From assembly GCA_945485605.1 (NCBI GenBank), contig CALYSG010000001.1, forward strand, positions 1 to 37,090: DNA of 37,090 nucleotides. The letters are read 5' to 3'. Below the pieces are notes generated by a model that was given only the letters and a program-made list of their open reading frames with translations, made no database searches and was not told the origin of the DNA. Source of the stretch: an uncultured Clostridia bacterium. GTDB lineage: Bacteria; Bacillota; Clostridia; Oscillospirales; CAG-272. The position numbers and the translations under genes were made by a program. Position 1 is the first letter of the stretch; each line of letters starts with the position of its first letter. Of the stretch, positions 20,379 to 37,090 are shown in pieces.

Positions 20379-20584
20379 GCGGATTCTTCCGAAGAAAAAG
20401 GTGATCCGACGCGCTCCGGCGCGGTATGATACGGACGTTTCTGCGTTTGCACGCCTCAGACTCCGACCGGGAGATCTCCGAAGTCGCGGAGGGACCGGAA
20501 AAGAACGGCGGCGACGGACGCGGGCTTTTATCAAGTCGTTTGCCCGAAAGGCGAACGCAACTATCTGTCAGGAGGAAAATCCAG

Positions 20585-23500
20585 ATGAAGCAAAACCTAT
20601 TCAGGCGAATTCTTGCGTTAGTATTGGCGCTTTCATGCCTTGCCGGATGCGTCGTCGCGGCTTCTGCCGCAGAGACGTCATCGGGAAGCACTTCGGGCGG
20701 CTCGACGACCGATACGACGCTTGCCGACGTAAGGGAGCTGCTTAACGCACTCTCCTACGCCGATTATTCGACGAAGGAGCCCTTTGCGAGTGCAAAACCG
20801 GGAAGAGAACCGATAGTTATCGACGCGCTCAGCTACAATGCCGAAAAGACCGACTCGAAGGTATACCGTGTTAAAGTCGATGAAAAGACCGGTATTGCCA
20901 CAATAGTCGATGCTTCCTATGTGCCCGCCGAGGGCGAGTCGATCGGACTCTTCGTCGGTGACTCGGGCGAGCTTGCTTATAAGCTCAATATACCTTCGAC
21001 CGCAAAGTACAACATTAAAATAGAGTACTACCCCGCGCTTGAACTCGTGGATGCCGAGGGCAACTCGATCTCCACCGACAAGTCGGGTTCCATTGAGCGC
21101 ATACTTAAGATAAACGGTACGATACCCTTCTCCGAGGCGCGCTACCTTGTGCTTCCGAAGATATGGAAGAACGTCTACACGATCAAGATGGAGACCGTTA
21201 AGACGAATGTTGCCGCCGACGGCACCAAGACCTACGAGTATGCCGATGTTACACCTTACATAGAGAAGGCGGAGAAGTGCGGCATAAAGTACACCGTCGC
21301 CGCAGACCGTTCCTCGATAACACTTGAATTACCCGAGGAAGGCTGGTCGCTCGATACCACGGGAAAGATGCAGGAGAATGCCCTTCGCCTCTTCACGCAG
21401 GATATCGACGGCAACGAGATCCGCAGCAACATGATACGCGTCCCCGAATGGCTCGAGTATAACTGCAAGGATGTCGACGGCTTCTATTCAAGGAACTTTG
21501 AGTTTGTATTCCTGCCGGGTGCAAACGAGATAAGCCTTCTCGCGAAGAGCCAGGCGATGGTCATAAAGTCGATAACGCTCTGCCCCGCCGAGGATCGCCC
21601 GTCTTATGAGGACGTGAAGAAGAGCTATGCCGAGAAGGGCTTCACCGCCGGAACCGGTAAGCTGAAGTTCGAGGCGGAATTTCCCTTCGCAACGACCTCG
21701 CAGACGATCTATCCGATCGAGGATTCTTCTTCCGCGATCACCTCTCCCTCCGACACGTCAAAGACTATCCTCAACACGATAGGCGGAGAGAAATGGCAGA
21801 CCTCGGGTCAGAGGATCAGATATCGCTTTACTGTCGATAAGGACGGCTTATATAATATTGTAACCCGTTACCGCCAGAACGTTAACGACGGTATCTTCTC
21901 GTCGCGTGTGCTGTACCTTTACAGCGACGGACTTGATAAGGACGCCGACGGATATTACAACGGTGTTCCTTTTGCCGAAGCCACCAACCTCAGATTTGAG
22001 TTTTCGACCGATTGGCAGGTCTCTCCGCTCAAGTATGCAAAGGAGATCAAGCAGGAGGACGGCAGCTCAAAGTGGGAGAGCGTCAACCTTGAGTTCTACT
22101 TCAAGGCGGGCGTGACCTACACGATGGAGCTTGAGGTCGCCCTCGGCGACATGGGCTCGATCGTCAGCGCGGTAAGCACTTCGCTTACTAACGTAAACAG
22201 TTACTACCTTAATATATTGAAGCTCACCGGAGCCGAGCCCGACCAGTACCGCGACTACGGTTTCTACCGTATAATGCCCGATACCATGCAGGGACTCGTA
22301 GTTGAGTCGAGAAGACTCAGCGACATCTCGGCGGAGCTTAAGAATATCGCCGGTCAGAGCAGCTCAAACGCAGCTACACTTGATAAGATAGTCCGACTCC
22401 TTGAGGAGATGGGAACCGACGAGGACAACGTTGCAAAGAACCTTGACCAGCTGAAGACCTACATAGGTACTCTCGGTACATGGATCAACGACAATAAGAC
22501 TCAGCCGCTTCAGTTCGACTATTTCGTCGTTCAGGCTCCCGGAGAAGCGCTTCCCGCCGGAAAGGCAAACTTCTTACAGACGATCGGACACGAGTTCATG
22601 AAGTTCTGGTACAGCTTCTGGCGTAACTACAACCGCATGGGTGCGACCAATGCCGGTGAGAACGAAGAGGCTATCGATGTCTGGCTTGCCTACGGTCGTG
22701 ACCAGACACAGGTCATCAGAAGCCTTATAAACAATGACTTTACTCCCCAGACCGGACACCTTGTCAACCTTAAGCTCGTGGCGGGAGGCTCGCTGCTTCC
22801 TTCGATACTTGCCCAATCGGGTCCCGATGTCTATATCGGTATCGGTGAGGATAACATCATCAACTATGCTATCCGCGGAGCTCTTATGAATATAGAGAAC
22901 TTCGAAGGATTTTATGAGCTGACCGACACCTACCTGCGTGAGCATAAGACGGTTGACGATCTTATATATGATCTGAAGGCTCAGAATTATATAATAACCG
23001 GCGAAGCGGGTAAGGAGATCAAGGCTATGTCGACCGACGGCGTCGCGATGTACACGATAAAGTACAACGCCGACGGCTCCGGCGTATGCACCGACCGCGC
23101 GGGTAAGACATATTACAGCTTCACCGCGGAAGGATGGCTCTATGAGACCGGTTCGACCTTCAGCGGCAGGACTTATACCTATAAGTATCAGCTCGATGAA
23201 AACGGCAATAAGATAAAGAACGATAAGGTCCAGTTCAACGAGGCGGCGATGTATACGCTCGGACTTCCCGATGCCGACAACATCATGCACTACTACGGTC
23301 TCCCCGAGACGCAGACCTTCTCGATGATGTTCGTGAGAAACGACATCCTTGCAAACCTCGGGATAGAGATCCCGAAATCGTGGGACGACGTTCAGGCGGC
23401 AATACAGACGCTTGAGTCGAAGAATATGCAGATCGGTATGTCGAACGACTATAAGATCTTCCTCTATCAGAAGGGAAGCAAGCTCTTTGCCGACGACGGA

Positions 23501-24490
23501 ATGAGGATCAACCTTGACTCGAATATCGCGCTCGACTCCTTCGATTATATGTGTAACCTCTTCACGATGTATTCATTCCCGTATAAGTACGACTTCTCGA
23601 ACCGTTTCAGAACGGGCGAGATGCCGATAGGTATCGCGGGATACAACGGAACCTATAACCAGCTCATCGTTTTTGCGACCGAGATCCGCGGACTCTGGTC
23701 GTTCTACCCGATCCCCGGTATCGCGACCTACAAGACCGACGATGCGGGCAGATATGTCTACGAGGACGGCAAGAAGGTCGTTGAAAACATCAATAATGTT
23801 GCCGTTGCCACGGTTTCGGCTATCTCGATGATAAACGGATGCAAAAATACCGAGGCGGCATGGTCGTTTATGAAGTGGCACGTCGGTCCCGAATGTCAGG
23901 TCAACTACTCGAACGAGATGGTAGCTATACTCGGTGACTCGGCAAAGCACGCTACGGCAAACATCACGGCTCTCGAAAGTATGCCGTGGACGACCGAGGA
24001 GTATAAGCAGCTCTCGGCACAGTTCAACAACCTTGCGTCAATACCCAACTACCCCGGATCGTATATTATAGGCCGTTATACGAAGTTCGCATTCCTTGCC
24101 GCTTACGATAAGAACGCGAACCCGACGACCTCACTGCTCAAGTATATAAACACGATCAATAAGGAGATCACGAGAAAGCGCGATGAGTTCGGACTTGAGA
24201 CTCTTGAGATCGGTGAGACGCTTGCAAGCAAGAGAATAGCTCAGGCGGAGGCTAAGCTCGACTCGCTCAGCGACGGAGCAAAGGCTCAGTACAAGACAGA
24301 GATCGAGGCGCTCAGAAAAGCGATAGCGAACCTTGATTCACAGAAGGCAAGGGTATCGCTTGAGAAGATCGAGGCGCTTGAAGCGGCATCCGACGGACTC
24401 CGCGCGACGCAGTATTCGGATCTCTTTGAGGTCGCGGACTTCATCGATACTGCGGCAGCGGCTCTGAGAGATTACAGATTCTCGTATTGA
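20585..24490 (+). CDS. Giant extracellular solute-binding lipoprotein (CUT1-type SBP core with about 650 aa of extra N-terminal modules and a C-terminal coiled coil)
   Basis: 1,301 aa counted from the ATG at 20585, which has an AGGAGG ribosome binding site. The signal peptide has a lipobox (LSCLAGC) followed by an S/T/G linker. Two beta-rich modules of similar style follow (YNIKIEYYP...ISLLAKSQAMVIKSITL and LYNIVTRYRQ...TYTMELEVALG). From about aa 695 the sequence is SBP-like (IDVWLAYGRDQTQVIRSLINNDFTPQTGHLVNLKLVAGGSLLPSILAQSGPDVYIG) and has a beta-rich insert. The tail is Ala/Lys/Glu-rich and helical. The tracked start at 20426 has no ribosome binding site or signal peptide. Confidence 0.85.
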   Translation: MKQNLFRRILALVLALSCLAGCVVAASAAETSSGSTSGGSTTDTTLADVRELLNALSYADYSTKEPFASAKPGREPIVIDALSYNAEKTDSKVYRVKVDEKTGIATIVDASYVPAEGESIGLFVGDSGELAYKLNIPSTAKYNIKIEYYPALELVDAEGNSISTDKSGSIERILKINGTIPFSEARYLVLPKIWKNVYTIKMETVKTNVAADGTKTYEYADVTPYIEKAEKCGIKYTVAADRSSITLELPEEGWSLDTTGKMQENALRLFTQDIDGNEIRSNMIRVPEWLEYNCKDVDGFYSRNFEFVFLPGANEISLLAKSQAMVIKSITLCPAEDRPSYEDVKKSYAEKGFTAGTGKLKFEAEFPFATTSQTIYPIEDSSSAITSPSDTSKTILNTIGGEKWQTSGQRIRYRFTVDKDGLYNIVTRYRQNVNDGIFSSRVLYLYSDGLDKDADGYYNGVPFAEATNLRFEFSTDWQVSPLKYAKEIKQEDGSSKWESVNLEFYFKAGVTYTMELEVALGDMGSIVSAVSTSLTNVNSYYLNILKLTGAEPDQYRDYGFYRIMPDTMQGLVVESRRLSDISAELKNIAGQSSSNAATLDKIVRLLEEMGTDEDNVAKNLDQLKTYIGTLGTWINDNKTQPLQFDYFVVQAPGEALPAGKANFLQTIGHEFMKFWYSFWRNYNRMGATNAGENEEAIDVWLAYGRDQTQVIRSLINNDFTPQTGHLVNLKLVAGGSLLPSILAQSGPDVYIGIGEDNIINYAIRGALMNIENFEGFYELTDTYLREHKTVDDLIYDLKAQNYIITGEAGKEIKAMSTDGVAMYTIKYNADGSGVCTDRAGKTYYSFTAEGWLYETGSTFSGRTYTYKYQLDENGNKIKNDKVQFNEAAMYTLGLPDADNIMHYYGLPETQTFSMMFVRNDILANLGIEIPKSWDDVQAAIQTLESKNMQIGMSNDYKIFLYQKGSKLFADDGMRINLDSNIALDSFDYMCNLFTMYSFPYKYDFSNRFRTGEMPIGIAGYNGTYNQLIVFATEIRGLWSFYPIPGIATYKTDDAGRYVYEDGKKVVENINNVAVATVSAISMINGCKNTEAAWSFMKWHVGPECQVNYSNEMVAILGDSAKHATANITALESMPWTTEEYKQLSAQFNNLASIPNYPGSYIIGRYTKFAFLAAYDKNANPTTSLLKYINTINKEITRKRDEFGLETLEIGETLASKRIAQAEAKLDSLSDGAKAQYKTEIEALRKAIANLDSQKARVSLEKIEALEAASDGLRATQYSDLFEVADFIDTAAAALRDYRFSY

Positions 24491-24525: not shown

Positions 24526-25473
24526 ATGTCACAGAATACGACAAAGAAAAAAGCTGTGGCGCGCAAGGATATGTCGAAGCTCCAGTGGACGCTGAAGGAA
24601 ATGAAGCGTAACTGGGCGGGATATGTGATGATCGCTCCCTTCGTGATCCTATTCACACTCTTCACGGTATGCCCTGTGTTGCTTTCGGTGGTATTCAGTT
24701 TCACAGACTTCAATATGTTGCAGGTACCGAATTTCGTCTTTCTCGATAACTATGCGAGACTGTTCCTTGATGACGATATATTCCTCATAGCCTGCAAGAA
24801 TACCTTTATATTCGCGTGTATCGTCGGACCCGCGTCCTACATTATGTCTCTTATGGTCGCGTGGTTCATAAACGAGCTGTCGCCGAAGATCAGATCGCTT
24901 GTTACCCTGGTCTTCTACGCGCCGTCAATTTCGGGTGAGGTCTACCTCATCTGGAAGACACTCTTCTCGGGAGACGCCTACGGCTGGGCAAACGCCTGGC
25001 TTATGAAGCTCCAGATAATAACCGAGGAGATCAACTGGTTCGAAAAAGCCGAATACGTAATGCCCCTTTGTATCATAGTTGCTCTATGGCAGTCCCTCGG
25101 AACGGCGTTCCTTTCGTTCATCGCCGGTCTTCAGGGTATCGACCGCTCACTATACGAGGCGGGAGCCGTTGACGGTATCAGAAACCGTTGGCAGGAGCTT
25201 TGGTACATAACCCTTCCGAGTATGAAGCCTCAGCTGATGTTCGGTGCTATCATGTCGATCACGAACTCGTTCGGCTTCGGATCGGTCGTTACCGCACTTT
25301 GCGGCTTCCCGTCTGTCGACTACGCGGCGCATACGATAATGCACCATCTGAACGACTACGGAAGTACGCGATTTGAGATAGGTTATTCGTCAACGATCGC
25401 TGTGGTTCTGTTCGCTATCATGATATCGGCGAACCTGCTGGTCAAAAAACTGATTTCGAAGGTAGGTAAGTGA
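24526..25473 (+). CDS. Carbohydrate ABC transporter permease (MalF/UgpA-like), pair 1
   Basis: 315-aa ORF with multiple TM segments. It has an EAA loop, YEAGAVDGIRNRWQELWYITLPSMKP, and an AAGGAG ribosome binding site. Confidence 0.92.
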   Translation: MSQNTTKKKAVARKDMSKLQWTLKEMKRNWAGYVMIAPFVILFTLFTVCPVLLSVVFSFTDFNMLQVPNFVFLDNYARLFLDDDIFLIACKNTFIFACIVGPASYIMSLMVAWFINELSPKIRSLVTLVFYAPSISGEVYLIWKTLFSGDAYGWANAWLMKLQIITEEINWFEKAEYVMPLCIIVALWQSLGTAFLSFIAGLQGIDRSLYEAGAVDGIRNRWQELWYITLPSMKPQLMFGAIMSITNSFGFGSVVTALCGFPSVDYAAHTIMHHLNDYGSTRFEIGYSSTIAVVLFAIMISANLLVKKLISKVGK

Positions 25474-25474
25474 T

Positions 25475-26347
25475 ATGGCAAGATTAAGAACAAGAAAACA
25501 CAGAGTCGTCCTCAGCCGTTCTACGGGAGGCGATATCGGAATTACACTTATCCTTGTGATACTCGGCGTATTTATGTTCCTGCCGATGTGGTACGCGATC
25601 GCGCAGTCATTCAAGCCGCTTGACGAGCTTTGGCTGTTCCCGCCGAGATTCATAGTCTACAGACCTACTTTCAAGAACTATCAGGACCTCTTCGTTCAGA
25701 TGAATGTTTCGTGGGTGCCTTTCTCAAGGTACATATTCAATACGGTCCTCGTTTCGGTCACCGGAACGGTCGGAAACCTCTTCCTCTCGTCGATGGCGGC
25801 GTACGCCTTCTCGAAGATCCACTTCCCCGGAAGAAAGTGGATGTTCAAGACGATAAGAATGTCCCTCATGTTCCACTCGACGGTTACGTCGATCACAAAC
25901 TACTTCATCATGAGCCGTCTCGGCTGGGTAGATACCTACCTTGCAAAGATAGTCCCCGCCTTCTGTACGACTCTCGGTCTTTACCTTATGAAGCAGTTCA
26001 TGGATTCGCAGGTGTCCGAGTCGGTGCTCGAATCTGCACGTCTTGACGGTGCGAGCGAGTTCAGGACCTTCTGGATGATAGCGATGCCTATGGTAAAGCC
26101 CGCGTGGCTGACTCTTATCATTTACTGCTTCCAGGGCCTCTGGAATGCGGGACAGTCTATCTACATTCAATCCGAGCAGCTCAAATCATTTAACTACGCA
26201 ATTCAGCAGATCGTCGCCGGAGGTATCAAGCGTGCCGGTGCCGGTGCCGCGGCGCAGGTCATCATGATGATGGTCCCAATACTGGTATTCGTCGTAACCC
26301 AGTCAAACATCATCGAGACGATGGGCTCCAGCGGTATGAAGGATTAA
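25475..26347 (+). CDS. Carbohydrate ABC transporter permease (MalG/UgpE-like), pair 1
   Basis: 290-aa ORF that starts 1 nt after the previous stop. EAA loop: ESARLDGASEFRTFWMIAMPMVKPA. Confidence 0.92.
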   Translation: MARLRTRKHRVVLSRSTGGDIGITLILVILGVFMFLPMWYAIAQSFKPLDELWLFPPRFIVYRPTFKNYQDLFVQMNVSWVPFSRYIFNTVLVSVTGTVGNLFLSSMAAYAFSKIHFPGRKWMFKTIRMSLMFHSTVTSITNYFIMSRLGWVDTYLAKIVPAFCTTLGLYLMKQFMDSQVSESVLESARLDGASEFRTFWMIAMPMVKPAWLTLIIYCFQGLWNAGQSIYIQSEQLKSFNYAIQQIVAGGIKRAGAGAAAQVIMMMVPILVFVVTQSNIIETMGSSGMKD

Positions 26348-26362: not shown

Positions 26363-28558
26363 ATGGTAAAAAGAATAAGTGCCGTGCTGGCAGTGATCTT
26401 CATAATAATTATTCTGTGCTCGCTTCCGGTCGGCGCAAAGTCATATCAGACCTATACCTACGCGCTTAAGGGCTATCCGCTGAATTCGCCCGACGCCTAT
26501 GTTCCCGAGATCGAGATAACCTCGGACTATATAGGTCTTACCGGCGGATCGGATATTCTGAAGGCTCTCAAAGAACCCTCGGATATCGAGGTAGACGAGA
26601 ACGGCTGGGTATATATAGCCGACTCGGCAGCCGATACGAAGGACGCCAAGTACAGCCGTATCGTCGTACTTGACAATAACTTCAAGCTTAAGCACATAAT
26701 AAAGGACTTTGATAACGATCAGGGTAACCCCGATACGCTGTGCGGACCGAAGGGTGTCTTCATCACCGATGACACGATCTATGTCTGCGATACAGATAAG
26801 AACAGAATAGTTACCTTTGACCGTCAGTTCAACTTCATCGACATAATCAAAGCCCCCGAAGACGAGCTCTTCGAGAACGACTCGGTCTATAAGCCGGTCG
26901 CGATCGCGGTTGACCAGTACGACAGACTTTACGTCGTGTCGTCAACGACCAACCAGGGCGTTATCATGATGACACGTGACGGCGACTTCACCGGGTTTAT
27001 CGGGGCGCAGAAATCCTCGCTCTCGACCTGGGATATAATCTGGAGACGTTTCCAGACCGACGAGCAGAGAGCACAGTCGGCAAAGGTCGTTCCGACCGAG
27101 TTCAACAACATCGCAATAAACAGCGACGGCTTCGTTTATGTCACTACGAACAAGATCAATGAGAAAACTCAGCAGAATGCAATAAAGAAGAAGTCAAAGA
27201 GCGGTGACTACGCTCCCGTCAAGCTCCTCAACCCCGCGGGAGAGGAGATCATGAGACGTAATGGCTTCTGGCCGCCGTCCGGTGACGTTCAGGTCGGTGC
27301 CGCTAACGAAGAAAACGGCGGAGCTTCCTCGATAATCGACGCCGCGGTCGGACCCGAGAAGACCTGGTCGATCGCCGACAGCAAGAGATCGAGGATCTTC
27401 ACCTATGACTTCGACGGGAACCTGCTCTTCGCCTTCGGACAGAAGAACGGCGGACAGCTCGGAAACATCGACCTTCTTGCAGGTATAGTCTATCAGCGCA
27501 ATTACGATGCCGACGGAAATCAGAACTACAAGATGCTCCTGCTCGATAAGAACAACAAGAGCTTCACGGTATTCCGCCAGACAGAGTACGGAAAGACACT
27601 GATCCAGGCTCTCGCACATCAGAACGCCCGTCAGTACGACACGGCGGTCGATGACTGGTTCGAGATACTGAAGAGAAACTCAAACTACGACGCGGCTTAT
27701 ATAGGTATAGGTCAGTCGATGTACAGAAACGGTCAGTACGAGGAATCAATAGAGTACTTCAAAGCTGCATACGATACCTCGAACTACTCGAGCTCGTATG
27801 AGGAGATCCGTAAGGCATGGATCACAAAGTGGCTCCTGCTTATACCGATCGGGGCTGTGGCGATCATCGTCGGATGCGTCTTCTTTATGAGGTATGCAAC
27901 TAAGGTCAACAGCCGCGCGGCTGTCGCCGGAGGTAAGAGAAACTTCAAGGAGGAGCTGCTCTACGGCTTCCACGTGATCTTCCACCCGTTCGACGGCTTC
28001 TGGGATCTGAAGCATGAGAAACGAGGCTCGCTGAGGGCTGCGATAGTCTTTATTCTGCTGACGATCGTCGCGTATTTCTATAAGGCGGTCGGCTCGGGTT
28101 ACTCGGTAAATCAGCAGACGGTCTATACGACGATAGTCGAACAGGCGGTGCAAGTAGTCCTGCCGCTTATGCTCTGGGCGATCGCAAACTGGTGTCTTAC
28201 GACGCTCTTTGACGGCGAGGGCAGCTTCAAGGATATCGTCATAGCGGTCGGGTATTCGCTTCTCCCGGTAATCCTTACGTTGATTCCGACGACGTTTGCC
28301 TCGAACTTCATGGTAAGCTCCGAGATAGACGTACTGAACTTTATCACGAACGTCGGACTTATCTGGGCGGGACTCCTGATCTTCACCGGTATGATGGTAA
28401 CACATGACTATTCGATAGGTAAGAACCTTGTAACGACGATCGGTACGCTTATCGGAATAATCTTCATAATGTTTATCAGCGTACTCTTCGTAACACTTCT
28501 CGGAAAAGTAGTCAGCTTCGTCACAAACATCATCACCGAGATAAGGTACAACGCATAG
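26363..28558 (+). CDS. Membrane protein with a signal/anchor, an NHL-like beta-propeller, TPR-like helices and a C-terminal YIP1-type 5-TM domain
   Basis: 731-aa ORF. Propeller-blade motifs recur: WVYIADSAAD...SRIVVLD, IYVCDTDKNRIVTFD, LYVVSSTTNQGVIMMTRDG, FVYVTTNK and SRIFTYDFDGNLLFAFG. A TPR-like stretch follows (YDTAVDDWFEILKRNSNYDAAYIGIGQSMYRNGQYEESIEYFKAAYD). After one further TM helix comes FHVIFHPFDGFWDLK plus five hydrophobic helices, which is YIP1-like. Confidence 0.8.
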   Translation: MVKRISAVLAVIFIIIILCSLPVGAKSYQTYTYALKGYPLNSPDAYVPEIEITSDYIGLTGGSDILKALKEPSDIEVDENGWVYIADSAADTKDAKYSRIVVLDNNFKLKHIIKDFDNDQGNPDTLCGPKGVFITDDTIYVCDTDKNRIVTFDRQFNFIDIIKAPEDELFENDSVYKPVAIAVDQYDRLYVVSSTTNQGVIMMTRDGDFTGFIGAQKSSLSTWDIIWRRFQTDEQRAQSAKVVPTEFNNIAINSDGFVYVTTNKINEKTQQNAIKKKSKSGDYAPVKLLNPAGEEIMRRNGFWPPSGDVQVGAANEENGGASSIIDAAVGPEKTWSIADSKRSRIFTYDFDGNLLFAFGQKNGGQLGNIDLLAGIVYQRNYDADGNQNYKMLLLDKNNKSFTVFRQTEYGKTLIQALAHQNARQYDTAVDDWFEILKRNSNYDAAYIGIGQSMYRNGQYEESIEYFKAAYDTSNYSSSYEEIRKAWITKWLLLIPIGAVAIIVGCVFFMRYATKVNSRAAVAGGKRNFKEELLYGFHVIFHPFDGFWDLKHEKRGSLRAAIVFILLTIVAYFYKAVGSGYSVNQQTVYTTIVEQAVQVVLPLMLWAIANWCLTTLFDGEGSFKDIVIAVGYSLLPVILTLIPTTFASNFMVSSEIDVLNFITNVGLIWAGLLIFTGMMVTHDYSIGKNLVTTIGTLIGIIFIMFISVLFVTLLGKVVSFVTNIITEIRYNA

Positions 28559-28571
28559 TCGGAGGGATAAT

Positions 28572-31500
28572 ATGAAAAATGTAATGAAAATACTGTCGGC
28601 TCTCTTGGCTGTGCTGATGCTGTGCGGGACCGTGACGGTCGGAGCAGGTGCTCTTACCCGTTACGACGAAAACGGCAACGCCGAAGGGTCAAGCAAGTTC
28701 AAGGAAGACTCCGTGAACTATGAGCTGACGATAGAAAAGAACCTTGAGTCCTCAAGGTTCAATACCCCGCAGGAAAAGGTCGCGAGCATGGACCTTATGT
28801 GGGAAAAGAACGGCTACAGAATGTATGTTGACCCGATCAGCGGAGAGGTCGCGACCGAGAAGATCGTGACCGGAGAGCTCCTCTTCACAAACCCGTGGGA
28901 CCTTTCAAACGCAGCATACACCGCGGTCACACCGGGCAAGAAGGACAAGAGCACCGCTCTCAGCGTCAAGAAGCAGCTTATGTCGCAGATAGTTATCACC
29001 TACATCGATAACAACAACCCGAAGGAGCTTTACAGCTGCATCGAGGCTGCGGCGAGAAATCAGATCAATGTTGAGTACATAAAGAACGGTATCCGCATAG
29101 AGTACTCGATCGGACGCGAGGAAGCGAGAATGCTTGTTCCTATGCGCATAAGCAAGGAAAGATTCGAGAAGAGGATCCTTCGCGAGATGCGTGAGACCGC
29201 CAATACCGAGGAAATCCTCGTTATCGACCCCAACGCCATTATCGGTACGGTCAGCGACGGTAAGAAGAAATTCGGCGATGCTCTCGATAAGGGAGCCGAA
29301 CCGGGCGAGGAATACGGATATTACGACTACGTAAAAAAGTTCATCGATCCGAACTTCGATATGGAGGGAGCACCTCTTTCGGGTGAAAGACTCAAAAAGT
29401 CCGACTACGGATTTGAGTATGAGTGCTTCGCGGTCATAAAGTTTACCTCGTACTACATTGAAAAGAACCTTGACAACGCGTCGACCGACGCCGAGCGTTC
29501 TTCGATCCTTGCCATGTATCCGATAGTCAAGCAGATGCCTATCTACATTATCGATACAACGGTCAAGGACAATGCCTCACAGATGAGGAAGGTCGAATCG
29601 TATATCAAGGACTACGCACCGACTTACACCTACGAGGAGCTTGACAACGACCATGAGCTGACCGAATACGAGGCGATGGCAAAATCGCCCGTCCTCTTCA
29701 AGGTCGCTCTCGAGTATACTGTCGATGAAGACGGTCTTGTCGTGCGTATGCCGGCTAACGGAATACGCTTCGACGAATCGATATATCTGCTTGAGAATAT
29801 CGAGATGATCCCTTACATGGGTGCCGGAAGGAACGACGGCGACTGGAGCGACGGAGGCGACGGATACAACTTCTTCCCGGACGGCTCCGGTGCACTGTTC
29901 GACTTCCAGCAGCTGAATGACGGTGCTCACCACGATGCATATGCGCAGATCTACGGTACCGACTTTGCATACCATACGATCGCGGGTCAGCATCAGGAAA
30001 CGGTGAGATACCCCGTTTTCGGTATCGTAGAGCACTGGACCGGAAAGAAGACCGACTACACGAAGGTCATCAAGCAGGAGGTCCTCAACGAGGACGGAAC
30101 CGTTAAGACCCCCGCGGTGTACGGAACGAAGGACGTTGACGAAGATCACGGCTTCCTCGCGATAATCGAGGAGGGTGACGCTCTCGCCAAGCTGACGACG
30201 GTCCACCTCAGCGCAAAGAGCATCTATAACACGGTCAAGATGAGTTTCTACCCGAGACCGAAGGACAGCTACAATATGGCTGACGCGATCTCTGTCGGCT
30301 CGAATAAGGAAATGACCGTCGTTTCGGAGAGAAAATACGTCGGTAACTATAAGGTCAGATACGTAATGCTCTCTGACGATGAGCTTGCAAAAGAGAATAA
30401 CCTCTCAAAATACTACGAATGCTCATGGATGGGCATGGCGGTCGCATACCGCGACTACCTTGAAAAGCAGAACGTCCTTACAAGACTTACCGAAAGCGAC
30501 GTTTCGGCAAATATTCCTCTCTATATCGAGACCTACGGCGCTATTATGACGACCGAGAAGATCTTCTCGATCCCGGTCGACGTAATGACACCTCTGACGA
30601 CCTTCGAGGACGTCAAGACGATGTACAACGATCTGTCGGGCGATATAAAGAAGAAGACCGAGGAGCTCGTGAACAGCGGTAACACGACCTCTGCCGGAGA
30701 AGAAAACGTAAAGAATGCCGCAAACATCAACTTTAAGCTCACGGGATATGCAAACGGCGGTATGTACTCGGTCATGCCTTATAACCTCAACTGGGAAAAG
30801 GCTGTCGGAGGCTCATCGGGCTTTGCTGATCTTGTGAAGTATTCGAAGGAGAACAACTTCGGTGTCTTCCCGGACTTCGACTTTGTATATTCTGAGAATC
30901 AGGCGAACTTCGACGGTGTGGACCTCAAGACGGACGCCGTAAAGACGATAGATAACCGTTACACGATGCGCCGTTACTTCAGCGCGACGTATCAGGCGTA
31001 CGTAGGTTACTACGAGCTCGCGATCTCGGCGTCAAGGTACGACAAATTTATCACCAAGCTGCTCTCTAATTACCTTAAGTACGACCCGACCGGCATATCG
31101 GTTTCGACTCTCGGTACCGACCTCAACTCGGACTTCGACGAAGAGGATCCGCTGAACCGCGAGGATTCGAAGGAATATACGATCGACGCGCTTAAAAAAC
31201 TCAACAACACGATCAATGCCTCCGGAAACGCGCTTAAGATAATGACGAGCGGAGGAAACGCTTACACCTGGAGATACGCCGACTACATTATAAATATGCC
31301 GCTTAATTCGAGCCGTTATAACGATTCGAGCAACGCGGTGCCCTTTATAGGTGTCGTGCTTCACGGATACCTCCAGTTCGCCGGTACGCCTATCAACGAA
31401 GAGGGCGATATCGAGTATGCGTTCCTGAAGGCCATCGAAAACGGTGCCGGACTCTACTTCGTAATCTCTTATCAGAACACTCAGAAGCTTAAGGACGATT

Positions 31501-34500
31501 TCCGACTCAGCGAGCATTACTCTGTCAGATACGATATCTGGAGAGATGACCTTGTTGATATGTATGTCGAGCTGAACGATCTTCTGAGCGATCTGCAGAC
31601 AAAACTCATAATTGACCACGAATTCCTCGTTGGTTCCCGCGTTCCCGATCCCGATGAGGTGATAGAGGACGAAGAGAACAAGAGAAAAGAGGAAGAGCTT
31701 AAGGCAGCCGAAGAGGCAGCCGCCGCCGCAAAGAAGGAGATCGCAGAGGCTCTTGCCCTCAGAAAGACTCCTATGACGCAGGCAAAGGCTACGGAAGCCG
31801 AGCTCGCCCGCGTTGCCTCCTACATTACTGCCGCGGCAAAGCACGCCGCACTGATCGACAGGAGCTATATCGACATCTGCGCAGACCTTGCAAAGGCGTC
31901 CGAGAATGCTCTGAAGGCAGCTGCCGAGGCACAGAAGGCAGTTTACAGCGCCACGGCGTTTGCTGCGGGCGAGAAGGATGCCGCGGATTCTGTCAGCAGC
32001 AAGATAAAGTCAGCTGTTGACAGCGCAGTAACCGATGCGCTCACCGCTCTGCTCGTCGGCGTAACCGATAATGCAAAGAGGACCGAGATAACCGCAAAGG
32101 TCAACAGCATTGCCGCTGAACTGAAGGCTGCCGCCGCGAACTCCGGCGCTGCCGAGGCGGCAAGACTCGCCGCTACGGCGGGCACTTACTTCAGCGATGC
32201 CGAAGCGGCCACCGCTAAGGAAAATGCCGCCAAGAAGATCGTTGATGCCGTTGCCGAAGGTATCGGAGACGAGAGCGCTGCCCTTACCGTAGCCGCCGAT
32301 GAGGCGGATCGCGTCATCGTTTCTATGGTCTCCGAGCTTCTCATTGAAAAGGTACTTGCCGCATTCACGGCTGCCGACGCCGCATCGGTCTACGATGTAG
32401 CGAAGAAGTCCTATGACAAGAACGTGACCGAGACAAACGACACGATCACAAGGATCGCTACCCTGCTTTCCAACAAGGAGACGACGAAGGCTGCGGCAAT
32501 AGCTGCCGGCGTTTCCGAGGCAGATGTCGCGAATGCGATCGCACTTGCCGAAGCCCGTCAGACGGCAGCAAGTAAGGTGACCGCCGCGAAACCCGATGAG
32601 AAGGCTTACACCGACGCTTCTTACGCTTACAATACGAAGATAGCTCTCTACTATTCGGCACTCAATGACACCTACAAGACTCTTGCGGGCAGCGATAGCG
32701 CGCTCAAGACCGCTCTCGAAAAGCTCGCGGCTTATGCTCAGGCTAATACCGAGGCAGCGGCGGCGGAGGCTCAGGCAAGTGTCAATCCGAGCGAATCGAA
32801 TACCGAGAATGCAACAAACAAACGCAACACAGCCAACACGAGAAAGGCTGAATATGAGGCACTTTCAGAGGCTGACCGCAACGCCGCTCAGGCAGTAGCC
32901 GACAGAGTCGATGCCGCTGTCGCCGCAAACAGCGACGATGCCTACAAGGCTCTCGCAACCAAGTTTGCCGACATGAATACCGCAAAGACCGCGGTATCCG
33001 ATGCCGAAGTCGGATACAAAGCATACCTTGTGCTCGTAAAAGAGTACAATGACGCAAAGACGGCATATGAGACGGGCGAGGTCGTAGCGATCGCGAAGGC
33101 GGCTGCCGACGCGAATTACACCGCAGTCGCTGCCGTTTATAACGAAGTAGCCAAATCAGATGCCATAAAGACCGCGCGTGAGATCACGGCACTGATCGAT
33201 GTCCTCATAAAGGCCGAAGCCAACCTCGCGTCCGTGAAGGATACATACGACACCGCGAAGGAATTCTTCGAAAAGACCGGACTTGAGGAGGGTGCTTACA
33301 ATACCGCGAAGGCCGCATACGAGACGGCGCTTACGGCTATGACGACAGCGAAGGCTGACCTTGACGGCGCGAGAAACGCCGCGGCTCACAAGACCGAATT
33401 TGAGGCGGTCGAAGCCGCTTACAGAGCGAAGCTTACCGCCGATACGCAGAATAAGCTGATAACCGACCTTGTTAAGTATACCGAGGACGCCGTGAAGGGT
33501 CTCTTCGGAATGAGCGCCGAGATGGCCGATGCGATAAATAAGACGGCAGACTACATCGTCAAGAACAACAAGGCTGCCGAAGCCTCTGCAACCTACAAGA
33601 CCTATATGTCGAAGATCGACAGCGCGGTATCCTCCATAAACTCGAGCATCGCGAATATGAAGGCCTCCGTAAGCCTTGCCGAATCGGCTACCGAGTCACT
33701 CAAGGAGAAGTACGAGGCAACTCTTGCCGATCCCAATGCGAGCGCGATAGAGAAACAGAGCGCAAAGCAGTTCTACGAGTCGGCAGTAGCCAATACGAAG
33801 AAGGCAAGCGACAACCTTGCCGCTCTCGAAAGAGATTACGACGAGCTGCGCAAACTGACCTACAACGAAGCCCTTACAAAGGCTAAGGCGATCGTATTCG
33901 GCTACGAAACGGTCGAGAACGATAAGAAGGCGGCGACAGACGCGTTCGTAAAATTCAACAATGCTCTTAACACATCCGATGAGGCGCTTAAGATAATCGA
34001 CAGCGAGTGGAAGAAGATGGTCGACGCCGCGAAGACCTATACCGAATCCGCGAATGCTCTTGCCGATATGGCAGAGAAGGATTTTGACGCCATGAGCAAG
34101 GCTGAGAAGGAAGAATACAAAGCTAATCTCGTGCTCTATTCCTACAGAAAGATGATCGCTGAGGAAGAGCTCCGCTCAGCACAGGAGATCATCAGTACGA
34201 ACCTTCTCATCTTCAAGGACGATAAGGGCTACAGAAATATGACGAAGCTCCGCAACAGCGCCGAGGCTTCTGTCCAGCTTCTCAAAGTTGACCTCGAGTA
34301 CGCCGCATCGCTTAAGGCTCTCTATGATGCCGACGCGACCGCGACAGCCGAGGATAGGGCTTACGCCGACGAAAAGTATGAGAACCTCAAGGCACTCTAC
34401 GACAGCTACTGCGAGATGCTTGAAAAGGCTGATGCGATGCTTGCACAGGTGCGTGCATTCGCACTTGAGCAGGAGCTTATCGACGAGAAGTTCGAGATCG

Positions 34501-34757
34501 TAAACAATACGAAGGCACAGGATCTCTTTAATGAGACCCTCAACGTAAAGAAGAAGAACAACACCACCGTCGAGACTGACAAGTACACGAGCTCGGACGG
34601 CTCGATCGTCGCCGTTACCTACGGCGGCAAGGACGGAAAAGACAACGAAGCCTACCGCACCTTCATACTTAACTACAATTCGTTCACTATAACCGTGACC
34701 TACGCCGGCGTCGAGTACACTATCCCCGGCTACGGATACAAGGTTATAAATCACTGA
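28572..34757 (+). CDS. Giant secreted protein: globular region of about 1,030 aa (DUF5696-like by recollection), Ala-rich helical region of about 930 aa, and a short beta-rich C-terminus
   Basis: 2,061-aa ORF with a GGAGGG ribosome binding site. It has a Sec-type signal peptide (MKNVMKILSALLAVLMLCGTVTVGAGA) with no canonical lipobox, and no LPXTG, SLH or C-terminal TM segment. The N-region is rich in Asp/Asn/Tyr/Phe (FFPDGSGALFDF, YIETYGA, NFGVFPDFDFVY). Confidence 0.85.
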   Translation: MKNVMKILSALLAVLMLCGTVTVGAGALTRYDENGNAEGSSKFKEDSVNYELTIEKNLESSRFNTPQEKVASMDLMWEKNGYRMYVDPISGEVATEKIVTGELLFTNPWDLSNAAYTAVTPGKKDKSTALSVKKQLMSQIVITYIDNNNPKELYSCIEAAARNQINVEYIKNGIRIEYSIGREEARMLVPMRISKERFEKRILREMRETANTEEILVIDPNAIIGTVSDGKKKFGDALDKGAEPGEEYGYYDYVKKFIDPNFDMEGAPLSGERLKKSDYGFEYECFAVIKFTSYYIEKNLDNASTDAERSSILAMYPIVKQMPIYIIDTTVKDNASQMRKVESYIKDYAPTYTYEELDNDHELTEYEAMAKSPVLFKVALEYTVDEDGLVVRMPANGIRFDESIYLLENIEMIPYMGAGRNDGDWSDGGDGYNFFPDGSGALFDFQQLNDGAHHDAYAQIYGTDFAYHTIAGQHQETVRYPVFGIVEHWTGKKTDYTKVIKQEVLNEDGTVKTPAVYGTKDVDEDHGFLAIIEEGDALAKLTTVHLSAKSIYNTVKMSFYPRPKDSYNMADAISVGSNKEMTVVSERKYVGNYKVRYVMLSDDELAKENNLSKYYECSWMGMAVAYRDYLEKQNVLTRLTESDVSANIPLYIETYGAIMTTEKIFSIPVDVMTPLTTFEDVKTMYNDLSGDIKKKTEELVNSGNTTSAGEENVKNAANINFKLTGYANGGMYSVMPYNLNWEKAVGGSSGFADLVKYSKENNFGVFPDFDFVYSENQANFDGVDLKTDAVKTIDNRYTMRRYFSATYQAYVGYYELAISASRYDKFITKLLSNYLKYDPTGISVSTLGTDLNSDFDEEDPLNREDSKEYTIDALKKLNNTINASGNALKIMTSGGNAYTWRYADYIINMPLNSSRYNDSSNAVPFIGVVLHGYLQFAGTPINEEGDIEYAFLKAIENGAGLYFVISYQNTQKLKDDFRLSEHYSVRYDIWRDDLVDMYVELNDLLSDLQTKLIIDHEFLVGSRVPDPDEVIEDEENKRKEEELKAAEEAAAAAKKEIAEALALRKTPMTQAKATEAELARVASYITAAAKHAALIDRSYIDICADLAKASENALKAAAEAQKAVYSATAFAAGEKDAADSVSSKIKSAVDSAVTDALTALLVGVTDNAKRTEITAKVNSIAAELKAAAANSGAAEAARLAATAGTYFSDAEAATAKENAAKKIVDAVAEGIGDESAALTVAADEADRVIVSMVSELLIEKVLAAFTAADAASVYDVAKKSYDKNVTETNDTITRIATLLSNKETTKAAAIAAGVSEADVANAIALAEARQTAASKVTAAKPDEKAYTDASYAYNTKIALYYSALNDTYKTLAGSDSALKTALEKLAAYAQANTEAAAAEAQASVNPSESNTENATNKRNTANTRKAEYEALSEADRNAAQAVADRVDAAVAANSDDAYKALATKFADMNTAKTAVSDAEVGYKAYLVLVKEYNDAKTAYETGEVVAIAKAAADANYTAVAAVYNEVAKSDAIKTAREITALIDVLIKAEANLASVKDTYDTAKEFFEKTGLEEGAYNTAKAAYETALTAMTTAKADLDGARNAAAHKTEFEAVEAAYRAKLTADTQNKLITDLVKYTEDAVKGLFGMSAEMADAINKTADYIVKNNKAAEASATYKTYMSKIDSAVSSINSSIANMKASVSLAESATESLKEKYEATLADPNASAIEKQSAKQFYESAVANTKKASDNLAALERDYDELRKLTYNEALTKAKAIVFGYETVENDKKAATDAFVKFNNALNTSDEALKIIDSEWKKMVDAAKTYTESANALADMAEKDFDAMSKAEKEEYKANLVLYSYRKMIAEEELRSAQEIISTNLLIFKDDKGYRNMTKLRNSAEASVQLLKVDLEYAASLKALYDADATATAEDRAYADEKYENLKALYDSYCEMLEKADAMLAQVRAFALEQELIDEKFEIVNNTKAQDLFNETLNVKKKNNTTVETDKYTSSDGSIVAVTYGGKDGKDNEAYRTFILNYNSFTITVTYAGVEYTIPGYGYKVINH
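31666..34470 (+). other. Alanine-rich, predicted all-helical low-complexity segment inside the 2,061-aa CDS
   Basis: The segment runs from EDEENKRKEEELKAAEEAAAAAKKE to ...RAFALEQELIDEK. Composition is dominated by A, K, E, T, D and S with periodic Tyr (for example AKAAYETALTAM and AKTAYETGE). It has essentially no Pro, Gly-rich or Trp content. At DNA level it is not an exact tandem repeat. Confidence 0.75.
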
Positions 34758-34776: not shown

Positions 34777-35763
34777 ATGACTGAAAACATTAAGCTGAAC
34801 GGCACCGAAACGAAGAAAAAATCCGGCGCCAAGAAGAAAAAACGCAGTCATGCCTCGCTTGACAGGCGTAAGGCGCGTTCCGGCTGGATCTTCGTCGCAC
34901 CGTTCGTGATCGGCTTTCTCTTCATCTACTTCCCCATAGTCTTGCAGTCAATAAAGATGAGCTTCTTCACTTACGAGACTCTTGCCGGCGGAGGCTACAC
35001 CATGGAGTGGGTCGGCTTCGAGTATTTCAGACAGGCGCTGTTCGTAAACCCGAAGTTCGTGCAGACTCTGATAACCGGAATCGGAGATATGATATTCGAG
35101 ATCCCCGCGATTATAATCTTCTCGCTCTTCATGGCGGTACTTCTGAACCAGAAGATGGCGGGCAGAGCACTCTTCCGCGCGATATTCTTCATTCCGGTTA
35201 TCCTGTCCACCGGTATTATGGAATCGATCAATAACCAGAACATCCTTGATGAGTACATGGAGGAAAGTATCTCGGACGGAACCGAATCGAGTGCCGCCGA
35301 TCAGATCGCCTCGGCGATGGATATTCAGGCGCTCTTCTCAGGAATGGCGGTCGGATCCGAGCTTGCCGAGATAGTTGCCGACTGGGTCAACAAGATATTC
35401 CAGATAGTAAACCGTTCGGGCGTTCAGATGCTTATATTCCTTGCCGGACTGCAATCTATCTCTCCTGCGATCTACGAATCGTGCCAGATAGACGGTGCGA
35501 CCGCATGGGAGACCTTCTGGAAGATCACATTCCCGATGATAAGCCCGATGATACTCGTCAACTCGGTATATACGGTCATAGATTCCTTTACGACCGACTC
35601 AAATACCATTATGAAATTTATTTCAAATGAGTATCTGCAGCCGGACGGAAAGGGAACGAGCACCGCTATGTCGTGGATGTACTTCCTCATCGTAATAGCT
35701 ATGGTCGGTATCATCGCGGCGATATGCTCCGCCTTCGTCTTCTACCAAAGACGAAATGACTGA
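34777..35763 (+). CDS. Carbohydrate ABC transporter permease (MalF/LplB-like), pair 2
   Basis: 328-aa ORF with a basic N-terminus (KKKSGAKKKKR). EAA loop: YESCQIDGATAWETFWKITFPMISP. An extended extracytoplasmic loop covers about aa 145-205. Confidence 0.9.
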   Translation: MTENIKLNGTETKKKSGAKKKKRSHASLDRRKARSGWIFVAPFVIGFLFIYFPIVLQSIKMSFFTYETLAGGGYTMEWVGFEYFRQALFVNPKFVQTLITGIGDMIFEIPAIIIFSLFMAVLLNQKMAGRALFRAIFFIPVILSTGIMESINNQNILDEYMEESISDGTESSAADQIASAMDIQALFSGMAVGSELAEIVADWVNKIFQIVNRSGVQMLIFLAGLQSISPAIYESCQIDGATAWETFWKITFPMISPMILVNSVYTVIDSFTTDSNTIMKFISNEYLQPDGKGTSTAMSWMYFLIVIAMVGIIAAICSAFVFYQRRND

Positions 35764-35780: not shown

Positions 35781-36842
35781 ATGGATACAACAGTGAATTC
35801 ATACCGCGATCCGCATAAGAAGGTAAAGGTCGAGTTTGACCGTGCCCCTCTTGCGCAGCGGCTCAAAGCAAAATATCTCTCCTTCTTCTTCATAAAGAAG
35901 GTCGTCTGGTATCTCTTCAGGCTCATACTTCTTATCGGTATATCGTACGTCGTTATCTACCCCTTCATCACGAAGATCGCGGGCTCGTTCATGTCGCCTG
36001 CGGACTTCGTCGATGTCACGGTACTTATTATACCGAAGCACTTCACACTTGACACTTATACGGCGATATTCAACGAGCTGAGCTACAGTGAGGCTTTTCT
36101 GAATACCTTCATGCTTTCTATATCCTGCGCGGTGATTCAGACGCTGAGCTGTTGCCTTGTCGGATACGGACTCGCGAAGTTCAAGTTCAAGGGTGCGAAG
36201 TACGTCTTTCTCGCCGTCATACTGACGATGATCCTTCCGTACAGAACGCTTTACAGCTCTATCATAGGATTTTTCGGCAGCTTTGATATAAGGGGACCGC
36301 TCTCGGCGCTTATCGACGGCCCCGGACTCTTCACACTGCTCGGAATGGCGGGATGGGAAGAGGTTGCAAACGGGATCAATATCAACAACACCTACTTCCC
36401 ACTTCTGATTCTCTCGGCGGCAGGACTTGCATTCAAGAACGGACTCTATATATTCCTTCTGAGACAGTTCTTCCGCGGAGTCCCCGACGAGCTCGAGGAG
36501 TCGGCTTACATCGACGGATCGGGTACGATAAAGACCTTCATCAGCATAATCCTTCCGCTTTCGGTGCCGATGCTGATAACGGTATTCCTCTTCTCGTTCT
36601 CGTGGCAGTGGACCGATATAGACTATACCGGAATGTTCTTCACGTCGACCAAGACGAAGCTGCTTCCCAACATAGTCGGCATCCCTCAGTCTCTCTCCCT
36701 TAAGGCGGAGGACTTCGCCGCCGGTAAGAACCTCTATGAGGCGGCGATAAGAAACACCTGCGGACTTATGATAATCGCGCCGCTGGTAGTCGTTTATGTC
36801 TTCTGCCAGAAGTTCCTGGTACAGGGCATAGAGCGCTCCGGT
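35781..36842 (+). CDS. Carbohydrate ABC transporter permease (MalG/LplC-like), pair 2; 3' end not resolved (no stop codon before the window end)
   Basis: This ORF is not in the supplied track because the frame never terminates. The ATG at 35781 follows an AGGAGAG ribosome binding site. The translation starts MDTTVNSYRDPHKK...LILLIGISYVVIYPF, has the EAA loop EESAYIDGSGTIKTFISIILPLSVPM, and ends with a family-typical ...FCQKFLVQGIERSG at 36842. After that the translation becomes R/L/Q-rich nonsense. Confidence 0.8.
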
Positions 36843-36845
36843 CAC

Positions 36846-37088
36846 GGCCTTCGCCTCGGGCTTCGCCGCCAGGATGAAGGAGACCATCGCCGAGACATCG
36901 CGCGCGGCCAGCCCCTTGACGGCCAAGAGCAGGTTATCCTCTTCATCCTTCTCCAGGAGCGTCTCGGCCTGCTTGAGCTGCTCCTCGGCAGAAGAGAGCT
37001 GCAACTTCTGCGCCAGGCAGACCAACTGCGCATAACGCGGGAAGTCGGACTTCTCCGAGCCCTTGATTGCAAAGTCCAGGCGGTTCTT
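36846..37088 (-). CDS. Partial ORF of unknown function, open at the window edge and running into the permease gene
   Basis: The minus-strand frame reads KNRLDFAIKGSEKSDFPRYAQLVCLAQKLQLSSAEEQLKQAETLLEKDEEDNLLLAVKGLAARDVSAMVSFILAAKPEAKA. This is protein-like, unlike the plus-strand translation of the same bases. Codon style looks different by eye (many CTG/CAG/GCC). Its continuation beyond about 36845 is the antisense shadow of the permease. Confidence 0.4.
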
Positions 37089-37090
37089 CA

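Follow-up and report, generated by a model that had tools for sequence, protein, structure and literature searches.

A predicted all-alpha arm of variable length in a secreted DUF5696 protein of an uncultured Clostridia bacterium

Why should a secreted protein be interrupted by some 930 alanine-rich residues shortly before its C-terminus, and what shape do these residues adopt? The question is raised by a 37,090-nucleotide (nt) stretch of DNA from an uncultured Clostridia bacterium (contig CALYSG010000001.1 of assembly GCA_945485605.1; hereafter the window), which carries a gene for a 2,061-amino-acid (aa) secreted protein of the Pfam family DUF5696. A sequence-only reading of this locus had proposed that the insert forms a continuous helix or coiled coil of ~100 nm; our analyses point to a different architecture. 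According to AlphaFold2 (AF2) modelling, the insert is a genuine folded all-alpha domain of ~940 residues (aa 1027-1966) and not one continuous helix or a canonical coiled coil. Comparison with its relatives establishes that the arm is a family-wide trait, of which only the distal half is lineage-specific. The parts of the protein are as follows, with coordinates given in the window:

28572..34757, + strand: whole gene, encoding the 2,061-aa secreted DUF5696 protein (head, helical insert, linker and C-terminal beta domain)
28572..28658, + strand: probable type I signal peptide (MKNVMKILSALLAVLMLCGTVTVGAGA/LT) without a canonical lipobox, as read from the sequence
28659..31649, + strand: head, aa 30-1026, Pfam DUF5696; putative GH129-like/GH101-like fold with an N-terminal beta-sandwich and a (beta/alpha)8 barrel
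31650..32051, + strand: N-proximal base of the insert, helices H1 (aa 1027-1092) and H2 (aa 1097-1160), with the motif ALALRKTP
32070..33503, + strand: distal, lineage-specific part of the insert, H3-H16 (aa 1167-1644), missing from shorter family members
33516..34469, + strand: C-proximal base of the insert, H17-H23 (aa 1649-1966), with H18 (AIEKQSAKQFYESAV...) as the most conserved helix
34470..34583, + strand: linker of ~38 aa (aa 1967-2004) that contains a single helix of 9 residues; confidence is low over aa 1993-2002
34584..34754, + strand: conserved five-strand C-terminal beta domain of 57 aa (aa 2005-2061), KYT..DGSIVAVTYGGK...YRTFILNYN.F...

The structural evidence derives from an AF2 prediction of aa 1000-2061 as a monomer, informed by a 45-sequence alignment. 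The model has a mean predicted local distance difference test (pLDDT) score of 90.1 and a predicted template modelling (pTM) score of 0.76, and 865 of the 935 residues of the insert were assigned to helices. These are apportioned among 23 helices of 10-71 residues (median 34) that are joined by turns of merely 1-8 residues; the longest, aa 1649-1719, comprises 71 residues and measures 10.7 nm, a result that, together with the lack of a coherent heptad phase described below, speaks against the continuous ~100-nm helix or coiled coil. With 23 helices connected by short turns the arm would probably reach tens of nanometres at most: if the residues in helices are shared among two to four helices lying side by side, the upper bound for an elongated arm is roughly 30-65 nm, and a compact packing would be shorter. 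No uninterrupted heptad register of the type that characterises canonical long coiled coils (M protein, myosin, SMC) runs over the insert. Foldseek retrieved no match to the insert model in the PDB at E <= 0.001, template modelling (TM) scores normalised to query length did not exceed 0.12 in the PDB or 0.13 over PDB and BFVD together, and the matches from the viral library (BFVD) were generic tape-measure or fibre helices. Sequence searches of Pfam, NCBIfam and the PDB with the insert, the C-terminal domain and the tail of the solute-binding protein (SBP) encoded in the same gene cassette gave nothing meaningful, and no Pfam repeat family was detected in the insert. Profile matches to COG6_N (E 0.009), Filament (E 7e-4), SMC, dynactin and myosin were rejected as compositional, all-helix matches only.

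The primary sequence of the insert is distinctive in composition and poor in repetition. The segment aa 1032-1966 (nt 31665-34469) is made up of 24.1% Ala, 9.6% Lys, 9.2% Glu, 7.7% Thr, 7.0% Asp and 6.3% Ser, with only 0.4% Pro and 1.8% Gly and a net charge of -37, compared with 6.9% Ala, 3.2% Pro and 6.5% Gly in the head; the sequence-only reading had located this segment correctly, with boundaries (31666-34470) that lie one base off the codon frame. Its description as a ~930-residue, Ala-rich and non-repetitive insert is borne out by the composition and by the absence of repeats above controls in both DNA and protein. Tandem Repeats Finder reported nothing within the insert and two short rows (31572-31594 and 31672-31691) at its 5' border. 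A direct-repeat scan recovered only GC-rich chance matches of 15-28 nt within the insert; the one longer family (64 nt, 70% identity) links a position in the head to another in the insert. The best ungapped 30-residue diagonal within the protein scored 48 versus 44.5 +/- 4.3 (maximum 54) for shuffled sequences.

Two further claims of that reading concern periodic Tyr, which is partly right, and a degenerate vocabulary. Tyr residues are not enriched (4.8% in the insert versus 7.1% in the head), there is no long-range lattice, and Fourier analysis over all 935 residues places their power under that of shuffles; locally, pairs of Tyr exactly seven residues apart number 10 versus 2.06 expected (z 5.7). 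As to vocabulary, the motif AK.AYE occurs twice in the insert versus ~0 expected, and AA.A.A does not rise above chance. Hydrophobic residues inside the predicted helices correlate at i+3, i+4, i+7 and i+14 (z 2.9, 4.0, 5.5 and 2.8, respectively), the amphipathic signal is patchy in windows of 42 residues, and across the 935 residues there is no power above shuffles at a period of 3.5 or 7 and no coherent heptad phase. The flat global spectrum and the patchy local windows would both arise because the phase of a heptad-like seam is reset at each turn.

The insert is not an assembly artefact, since it contains no repeats and is present at full length in four independent assemblies (Logan SRR25667342, ENA ERZ27253213, Logan SRR12557734 and NCBI GCA_964461635.1), in copies that share 99%, 79% and 61% identity with the window protein; the protein cluster at 99% identity alone comprises 72 member sequences. 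Artefactual expansion, against which the sequence-only reading had advised a check, is excluded by these four assemblies and by the lack of any repeat able to mislead an assembler. Among close homologues (P0002-P0004) the insert is 67-68% identical to that of the window protein with 0 or 1 gap events over 935 residues, while the head is ~90% identical; in P0005 the corresponding values are 46% with 3 gap events for the insert and 74% for the head. Nei-Gojobori ratios of nonsynonymous to synonymous substitution rates (dN/dS) amount to 0.065-0.096 in the head and 0.18-0.31 in the insert, where the distal part (H3-H16) evolves fastest (0.20-0.45). The insert is under purifying selection that is about three times more relaxed than that on the head. 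Conservation by residue class is 0.71 for Ala, 0.66 for large hydrophobic residues and 0.69 for Gly/Pro compared with 0.48 for polar residues, which is the pattern of a packed helical fold. A disordered low-complexity linker was considered and is excluded by the pLDDT of 90.1, the pTM of 0.76, the near-absence of gaps at 67-68% identity and the dN/dS of 0.18-0.31, so that the helical nature proposed at the outset stands.

Relatives of the protein are found in 534 species-level genomes, and the locus-level results reported here rest on the 80 loci listed, which belong to Clostridia, Eubacteriales, Oscillospiraceae and similar groups and for the most part were sampled from gut and rumen. Of the 120 best relatives, 117 possess both the C-terminal beta domain and the end of the head, and the 211-1,452 residues between them are always rich in Ala (12-32%) and poor in Pro and Gly. 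Inserts as short as 65 aa occur among the 80 genome loci, extending the overall range to 65-1,452 residues, with modes near 200-300, 400-500, 800-900 and 1,200-1,300; the variability in length for which the sequence-only reading advised a check is real, and the lineage specificity about which it asked applies to the distal half and not to the arm itself. In a minimal clade (L027, L047, L056 and L024) the insert is reduced to 65-97 residues that form one charged helix and an acidic, Pro-containing linker. For three of these loci (L027, L047 and L056) the SBP gene is available and lacks the helical tail, and the clade constitutes a useful natural control.

Conservation along the insert is V-shaped, with the lowest coverage by high-scoring segment pairs at aa 1540-1660, and what shorter homologues are missing is nested within the middle of the insert (aa 1105-1668 in P0016, aa 1204-1703 in P0027). 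These two observations together imply that the base of the arm (H1-H2 and H17-H23) is the conserved part. H1 and H18 are the most conserved helices, H1 being 83% identical in close homologues, and roughly a third of the 120 best relatives retain the C-proximal base H17-H23. At the other extreme, the distal 478 aa (1167-1644) matched only their own cluster when searched against 1.84 billion representative proteins. Within H1, R1064 of the ALALRKTP motif is invariant in both family alignments (61 and 45 sequences). A Pro follows R1064 inside the predicted helix, and the Arg may be a fixed contact point.

Where does the arm emerge from, and what does it belong to? The ~6.2-kb open reading frame (ORF; 28572-34757, + strand) begins with an ATG at 28572 that is preceded by GGAGG 7 nt upstream. 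Its N-terminal ~1,020 aa match the DUF5696 (PF18952) hidden Markov model with 392.5 bits and an E-value of 4.7e-117 (gathering score 25.6 bits). Insert and C-terminal beta domain both lie outside the Pfam model, and a search of this beta domain as the possible end of the DUF5696 model gave no match, which is uninformative. No significant sequence match was found in the PDB (best E 0.06, unrelated). A full-length AF2 model of a short-insert relative, P0044 (1,180 aa, 49% identical; pLDDT 80.8, pTM 0.71), was more revealing. In this model the region equivalent to the signal peptide is a low-confidence helix followed by disorder, and Foldseek aligned the P0044 structure with the GH129-like 3,6-anhydro-D-galactosidase DagB (5opq_D, E 4.8e-23), with NagBb, an alpha-N-acetylgalactosaminidase of family GH129 (5wzr_A, E 1.9e-19), and with the GH101 endo-alpha-GalNAcases (2zxq and 5a55, E 3e-12 to 1e-8); TM scores normalised to the target were 0.65-0.69 for the GH129 proteins. 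The head thus appears to be folded like the GH129-like and GH101 glycosidases, with a predicted role as an enzyme. The structural alignments with GH129 and GH101 proteins carry only 10-11% sequence identity, too little for the DUF5696 head to be placed in either family by its sequence. With regard to the catalytic Asp/Glu pair conserved in these glycosidases, many carboxylates are invariant in the DUF5696 family alignment.

DagB is built from a beta-sandwich at the N-terminus, a TIM barrel and, at the C-terminus, an immunoglobulin (Ig)-like domain of 73 residues, and it is a homodimer (PMC5698469). In the DUF5696 protein the barrel is followed by two short strands that close the head (aa 1013-1023, nt 31608-31640), then by the helices, the linker and the five-strand domain of 57 residues; what had been taken for a ~95-aa beta-rich C-terminus is accordingly composed of a ~38-aa linker and this 57-aa domain. 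Added up, the pair of short strands and the domain of five strands come close in size to the Ig-like domain of DagB. After the head, the C-terminal beta domain is the best-conserved part of the protein, and its pLDDT is 92-94 when modelled with the head (P0044) versus 62-83 without it (window). In the light of the models, the five-strand domain and the strands at aa 1013-1023 probably form one Ig-like domain, which would pack on the head. Because of the combined size of the strands, the conservation of the C-terminal domain and the difference in pLDDT with and without the head, we infer that the helices are inserted into, or immediately before, this Ig-like domain. An insert within the Ig-like domain would have both of its ends returning to the head, which would make it an out-and-back arm and not a linear tether.

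No classical surface anchor was found in the protein. Searches of Pfam and NCBIfam detected no LPXTG, SLH or dockerin domain and no choline- or GW-type wall-binding domain in the DUF5696 protein, inspection of the sequence found no Cys in a lipobox context, and the C-terminus (...YGYKVINH) is free of a sorting signal; the earlier verdict that there is no recognisable anchor is upheld. Potential partners are encoded next to it. The gene belongs to a seven-gene cassette for an ATP-binding cassette (ABC) importer, whose other members are these:

20585..24490, + strand: giant lipoprotein SBP with the lipobox LAGC and an SBP_bac_1 domain near its C-terminus
24182..24487, + strand: Ala-rich SBP tail of 102 aa (Ala 19%, no Pro), following a conserved INKEITRKR motif
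24526-25473 and 25475-26347, + strand: ABC permease pair A/B
26363..28558, + strand: membrane protein comprising signal peptide, NHL beta-propeller, TPR region (taken as extracellular) and C-terminal multi-pass Yip1 domain
34777..35763, + strand: third permease-like protein, permC, BPD_transp_1
35781..36842, + strand: fourth permease, permD; at a synteny break, other sequence stands in for its four final codons and its stop

The order SBP-permA-permB-Yip1-DUF5696-permC is identical wherever the flank is available among the 80 loci, and a fourth permease follows permC in the relatives L081 and L083. As the sequence-only reading had noticed, the SBP ends in a shorter segment of similar composition to the insert, the 102-aa tail, and the link that it drew between the two gains correlative support: SBP tail length and insert length are correlated across 53 loci with a Spearman coefficient of 0.58 (p 5e-6, kinship ignored). 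The three loci with inserts of 65-78 aa have SBP tails of 27-36 aa, and all 50 loci with inserts of at least 200 aa have tails of 89-186 aa. This co-variation of tail and insert supports, without proving, a role in docking or positioning. In most tail-bearing loci the SBP tail ends in [YF][ILM]..AA.AL..Y near the extreme C-terminus.

Several features of the cassette merit a record in their own right. The SBP is about three times the usual size, with ~880 residues ahead of SBP_bac_1 in which only a weak Golvesin_C-like match is found. Its ORF opens at 20426; the ATG at 20585, with AGGAGG upstream and a lipoprotein signal, is the likely start, and the annotated one is probably too early. Seen together, the terminal motif of the SBP and the TPR region of the neighbouring Yip1 protein might hint that a peptide or helix at the C-terminus is recognised. 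The 731-aa Yip1 membrane protein is encoded immediately upstream of the DUF5696 gene in 80 of the 80 loci. The permeases of the cassette come in two pairs (A/B and C/D), yet it encodes a single SBP and lacks an ATPase subunit. Synteny breaks at ~nt 36843, exactly at the 3' end of permD, and the downstream DNA (36825-37090) is unrelated to that of the relatives, in which permD ends in ...GIERSGLTAD and a stop codon, followed by a spacer and a small minus-strand gene; in the window the protein reads ...GIERSG and then HGLRLG..., with no stop before the window ends. The break represents either a real rearrangement or a chimeric assembly join. An Arg-rich ORF of 408 aa with a TTG start and no Pfam match (35799-37025, minus strand) is mostly antisense to permD and probably no gene; only for its first ~60 codons is membership of a genuine minus-strand gene further downstream conceivable.

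How might these elements work together? We propose that the insert is an out-and-back helical arm protruding from the C-terminal Ig-like domain of a secreted, glycosidase-like enzyme. Its ~23 amphipathic helices would pack on heptad-like seams of Ala, Tyr and aliphatic residues, with a conserved base that includes the invariant R1064 and the QFYESAV helix, and a distal portion, H3-H16, that would be lengthened or shortened between lineages. The arm would hold and position the otherwise anchorless enzyme at the cell surface, beside the ABC importer of the same seven-gene cassette. The conserved base would be the docking site, for which the helical SBP tail and/or the TPR/NHL extracellular region of the Yip1 protein are candidate partners, and the variable distal part would point outward, entering or crossing the wall. 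Taken as a whole, a folded arm with a positioning role has in our judgement an even chance of being correct; its structural half is much firmer than its functional half, in which docking and surface location are what we infer. We would go further only with considerable hesitation: the bolder notion that the seven genes make up an unrecognised Gram-positive machine for harvesting glycans, in which an anchorless GH129-like enzyme is held on its importer by helix docking alone, the base of the arm facing the SBP tail and/or the TPR ectodomain of the Yip1 protein, the rapidly evolving distal arm serves as a wall-spanning probe with a length tuned to each lineage's envelope, and the arm as a whole is a new large all-alpha fold, seems to us unlikely, albeit conceivable.

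Several considerations weigh against this proposal. AF2 may be overconfident on Ala-rich helices, and for the distal half of the insert it could draw on only about five close sequences. The shape of the arm, the packing of its helices and the contact between the C-terminal domain and the head are indirect deductions, and the match to glycosidase folds was made on the model of the homologue P0044, not on that of the window protein. The correlation between tail and insert ignores phylogeny, and the three minimal loci are mutual nearest relatives that may represent a single event. Nor is the tail proportional to the insert: tails of 98 and 102 aa accompany inserts of 231 and 1,073 aa, respectively.

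The same observations can be read in other ways. If the helices of two or more chains interdigitated, the insert would be an oligomerisation scaffold for enzyme assemblies or a surface lattice, and the AF2 monomer would have misassigned its contacts. Such a scaffold could draw on the heptad-like seams, on the homodimeric state of DagB, the closest structural relative (PMC5698469), and on the fact that the predictions were of the monomer only. It sits uneasily with the high pTM of a self-contained monomer, with turns so short that they favour intramolecular hairpins, with fast distal evolution that is unusual for an obligate homo-oligomer interface and with the minimal family members that manage without an arm; we deem it unlikely on balance. 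The arm could alternatively reach outward as an adhesin or ligand-binding device for host mucus, dietary particles or other cells, with no connection to the transporter, its rapid distal evolution reflecting diversifying interactions or evasion of phages or immunity. A lineage-specific distal part that evolves about three times faster than the head, length classes that differ among clades and the predominance of gut and rumen genomes among the relatives are all compatible with this. Since dN/dS is well under 1 with no region-level positive selection, no known binding domain was found and the correlated length of the SBP tail directs attention back to the cassette, an adhesin strikes us as decidedly unlikely.

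The remaining two explanations fare worse. One might take the insert for mere filler, helical sequence that is tolerated and expands neutrally to no specific end, and point to the wide range of lengths, including near absence in one clade, and to the lack of a family or fold match; neutrality would hardly preserve the length of the insert at 46-68% identity, a dN/dS of 0.18-0.31, the preferential conservation of core residue classes or the invariant Arg and conserved base helices across the family, and we consider this improbable. The single continuous helix, or two- or three-stranded coiled-coil rod of at least 100 nm that spans the wall, is the least probable of all and in our estimation very improbable indeed. 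It has in its favour the very low content of Pro and Gly, more than 90% helix, the local heptad spacing of hydrophobic residues and Tyr, and the profile matches to SMC, dynactin and myosin coiled coils, composition-driven as they are. It is opposed by the division of the segment into 23 helices, the longest of 71 residues, with confident turns and a pTM of 0.76, by the lack of a coherent 3.5- or 7-residue periodicity, with a patchy amphipathic signal, and by the conservation of turn motifs containing Gly, Pro or Asn (G/P identity 0.69); were both ends to return to the head, the reach would be at most half of the contour length. The folded arm that positions its enzyme at the surface is the reading that we carry forward.

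In the literature that we searched, neither DUF5696 nor PF18952 is mentioned, and no combination of GH129, Yip1 and ABC transporter led to a description of this system. The insert can be counted among helical arms or stalks, here in a putative surface enzyme on which, as on its partners, that literature contains no study. As a large, non-repetitive and confidently predicted all-alpha domain without a structural match the insert is an attractive target for structural biology, and the natural series of lengths from 65 to ~1,450 residues amounts to a natural experiment on the growth of helical domains. If the arm does tether a glycosidase to an importer, it would provide an alternative to retention by sortase, cohesin-dockerin or S-layer-homology mechanisms and would explain how an anchorless enzyme stays beside its transporter.

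Comparison with known systems brings the peculiarities of the arm into focus. The predicted head shares with DagB, NagBb and the GH101 enzymes an architecture of beta-sandwich, (beta/alpha)8 barrel and small Ig-like domain, as judged from the P0044 model; those enzymes have no helical insertion between the barrel and the C-terminal domain. Antigen I/II (SpaP/P1) of oral streptococci pairs repetitive Ala-rich helices with a Pro-rich polyproline helix, carries its head at the tip and is LPXTG-anchored. It resembles the present protein in using an Ala-rich, out-and-back helical stalk to separate parts of a Gram-positive surface protein, whereas the DUF5696 insert contains 0.4% Pro, no repeats and no sortase signal. 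Spectrin repeats and the staphylococcal Ebh/Embp rods are serial three-helix bundles built from recognisable tandem sequence repeats. All-alpha modules, helices of 30-40 residues, short turns and heptad-like cores are common to these rods and to the insert, in which tandem repeats of ~100-130 aa and a fold match are lacking. The parallel with SMC, Rad50 and MukB is one of design: no homology between the insert and SMC was detected, the profile matches being compositional and the Foldseek TM scores at or below 0.08. In these proteins, too, a very long helical detour that runs out and returns splits a globular unit, and its length differs from lineage to lineage; theirs, however, is a two-helix antiparallel coiled coil with a hinge at its apex, whereas the arm of the DUF5696 protein would be assembled from ~23 shorter helices.

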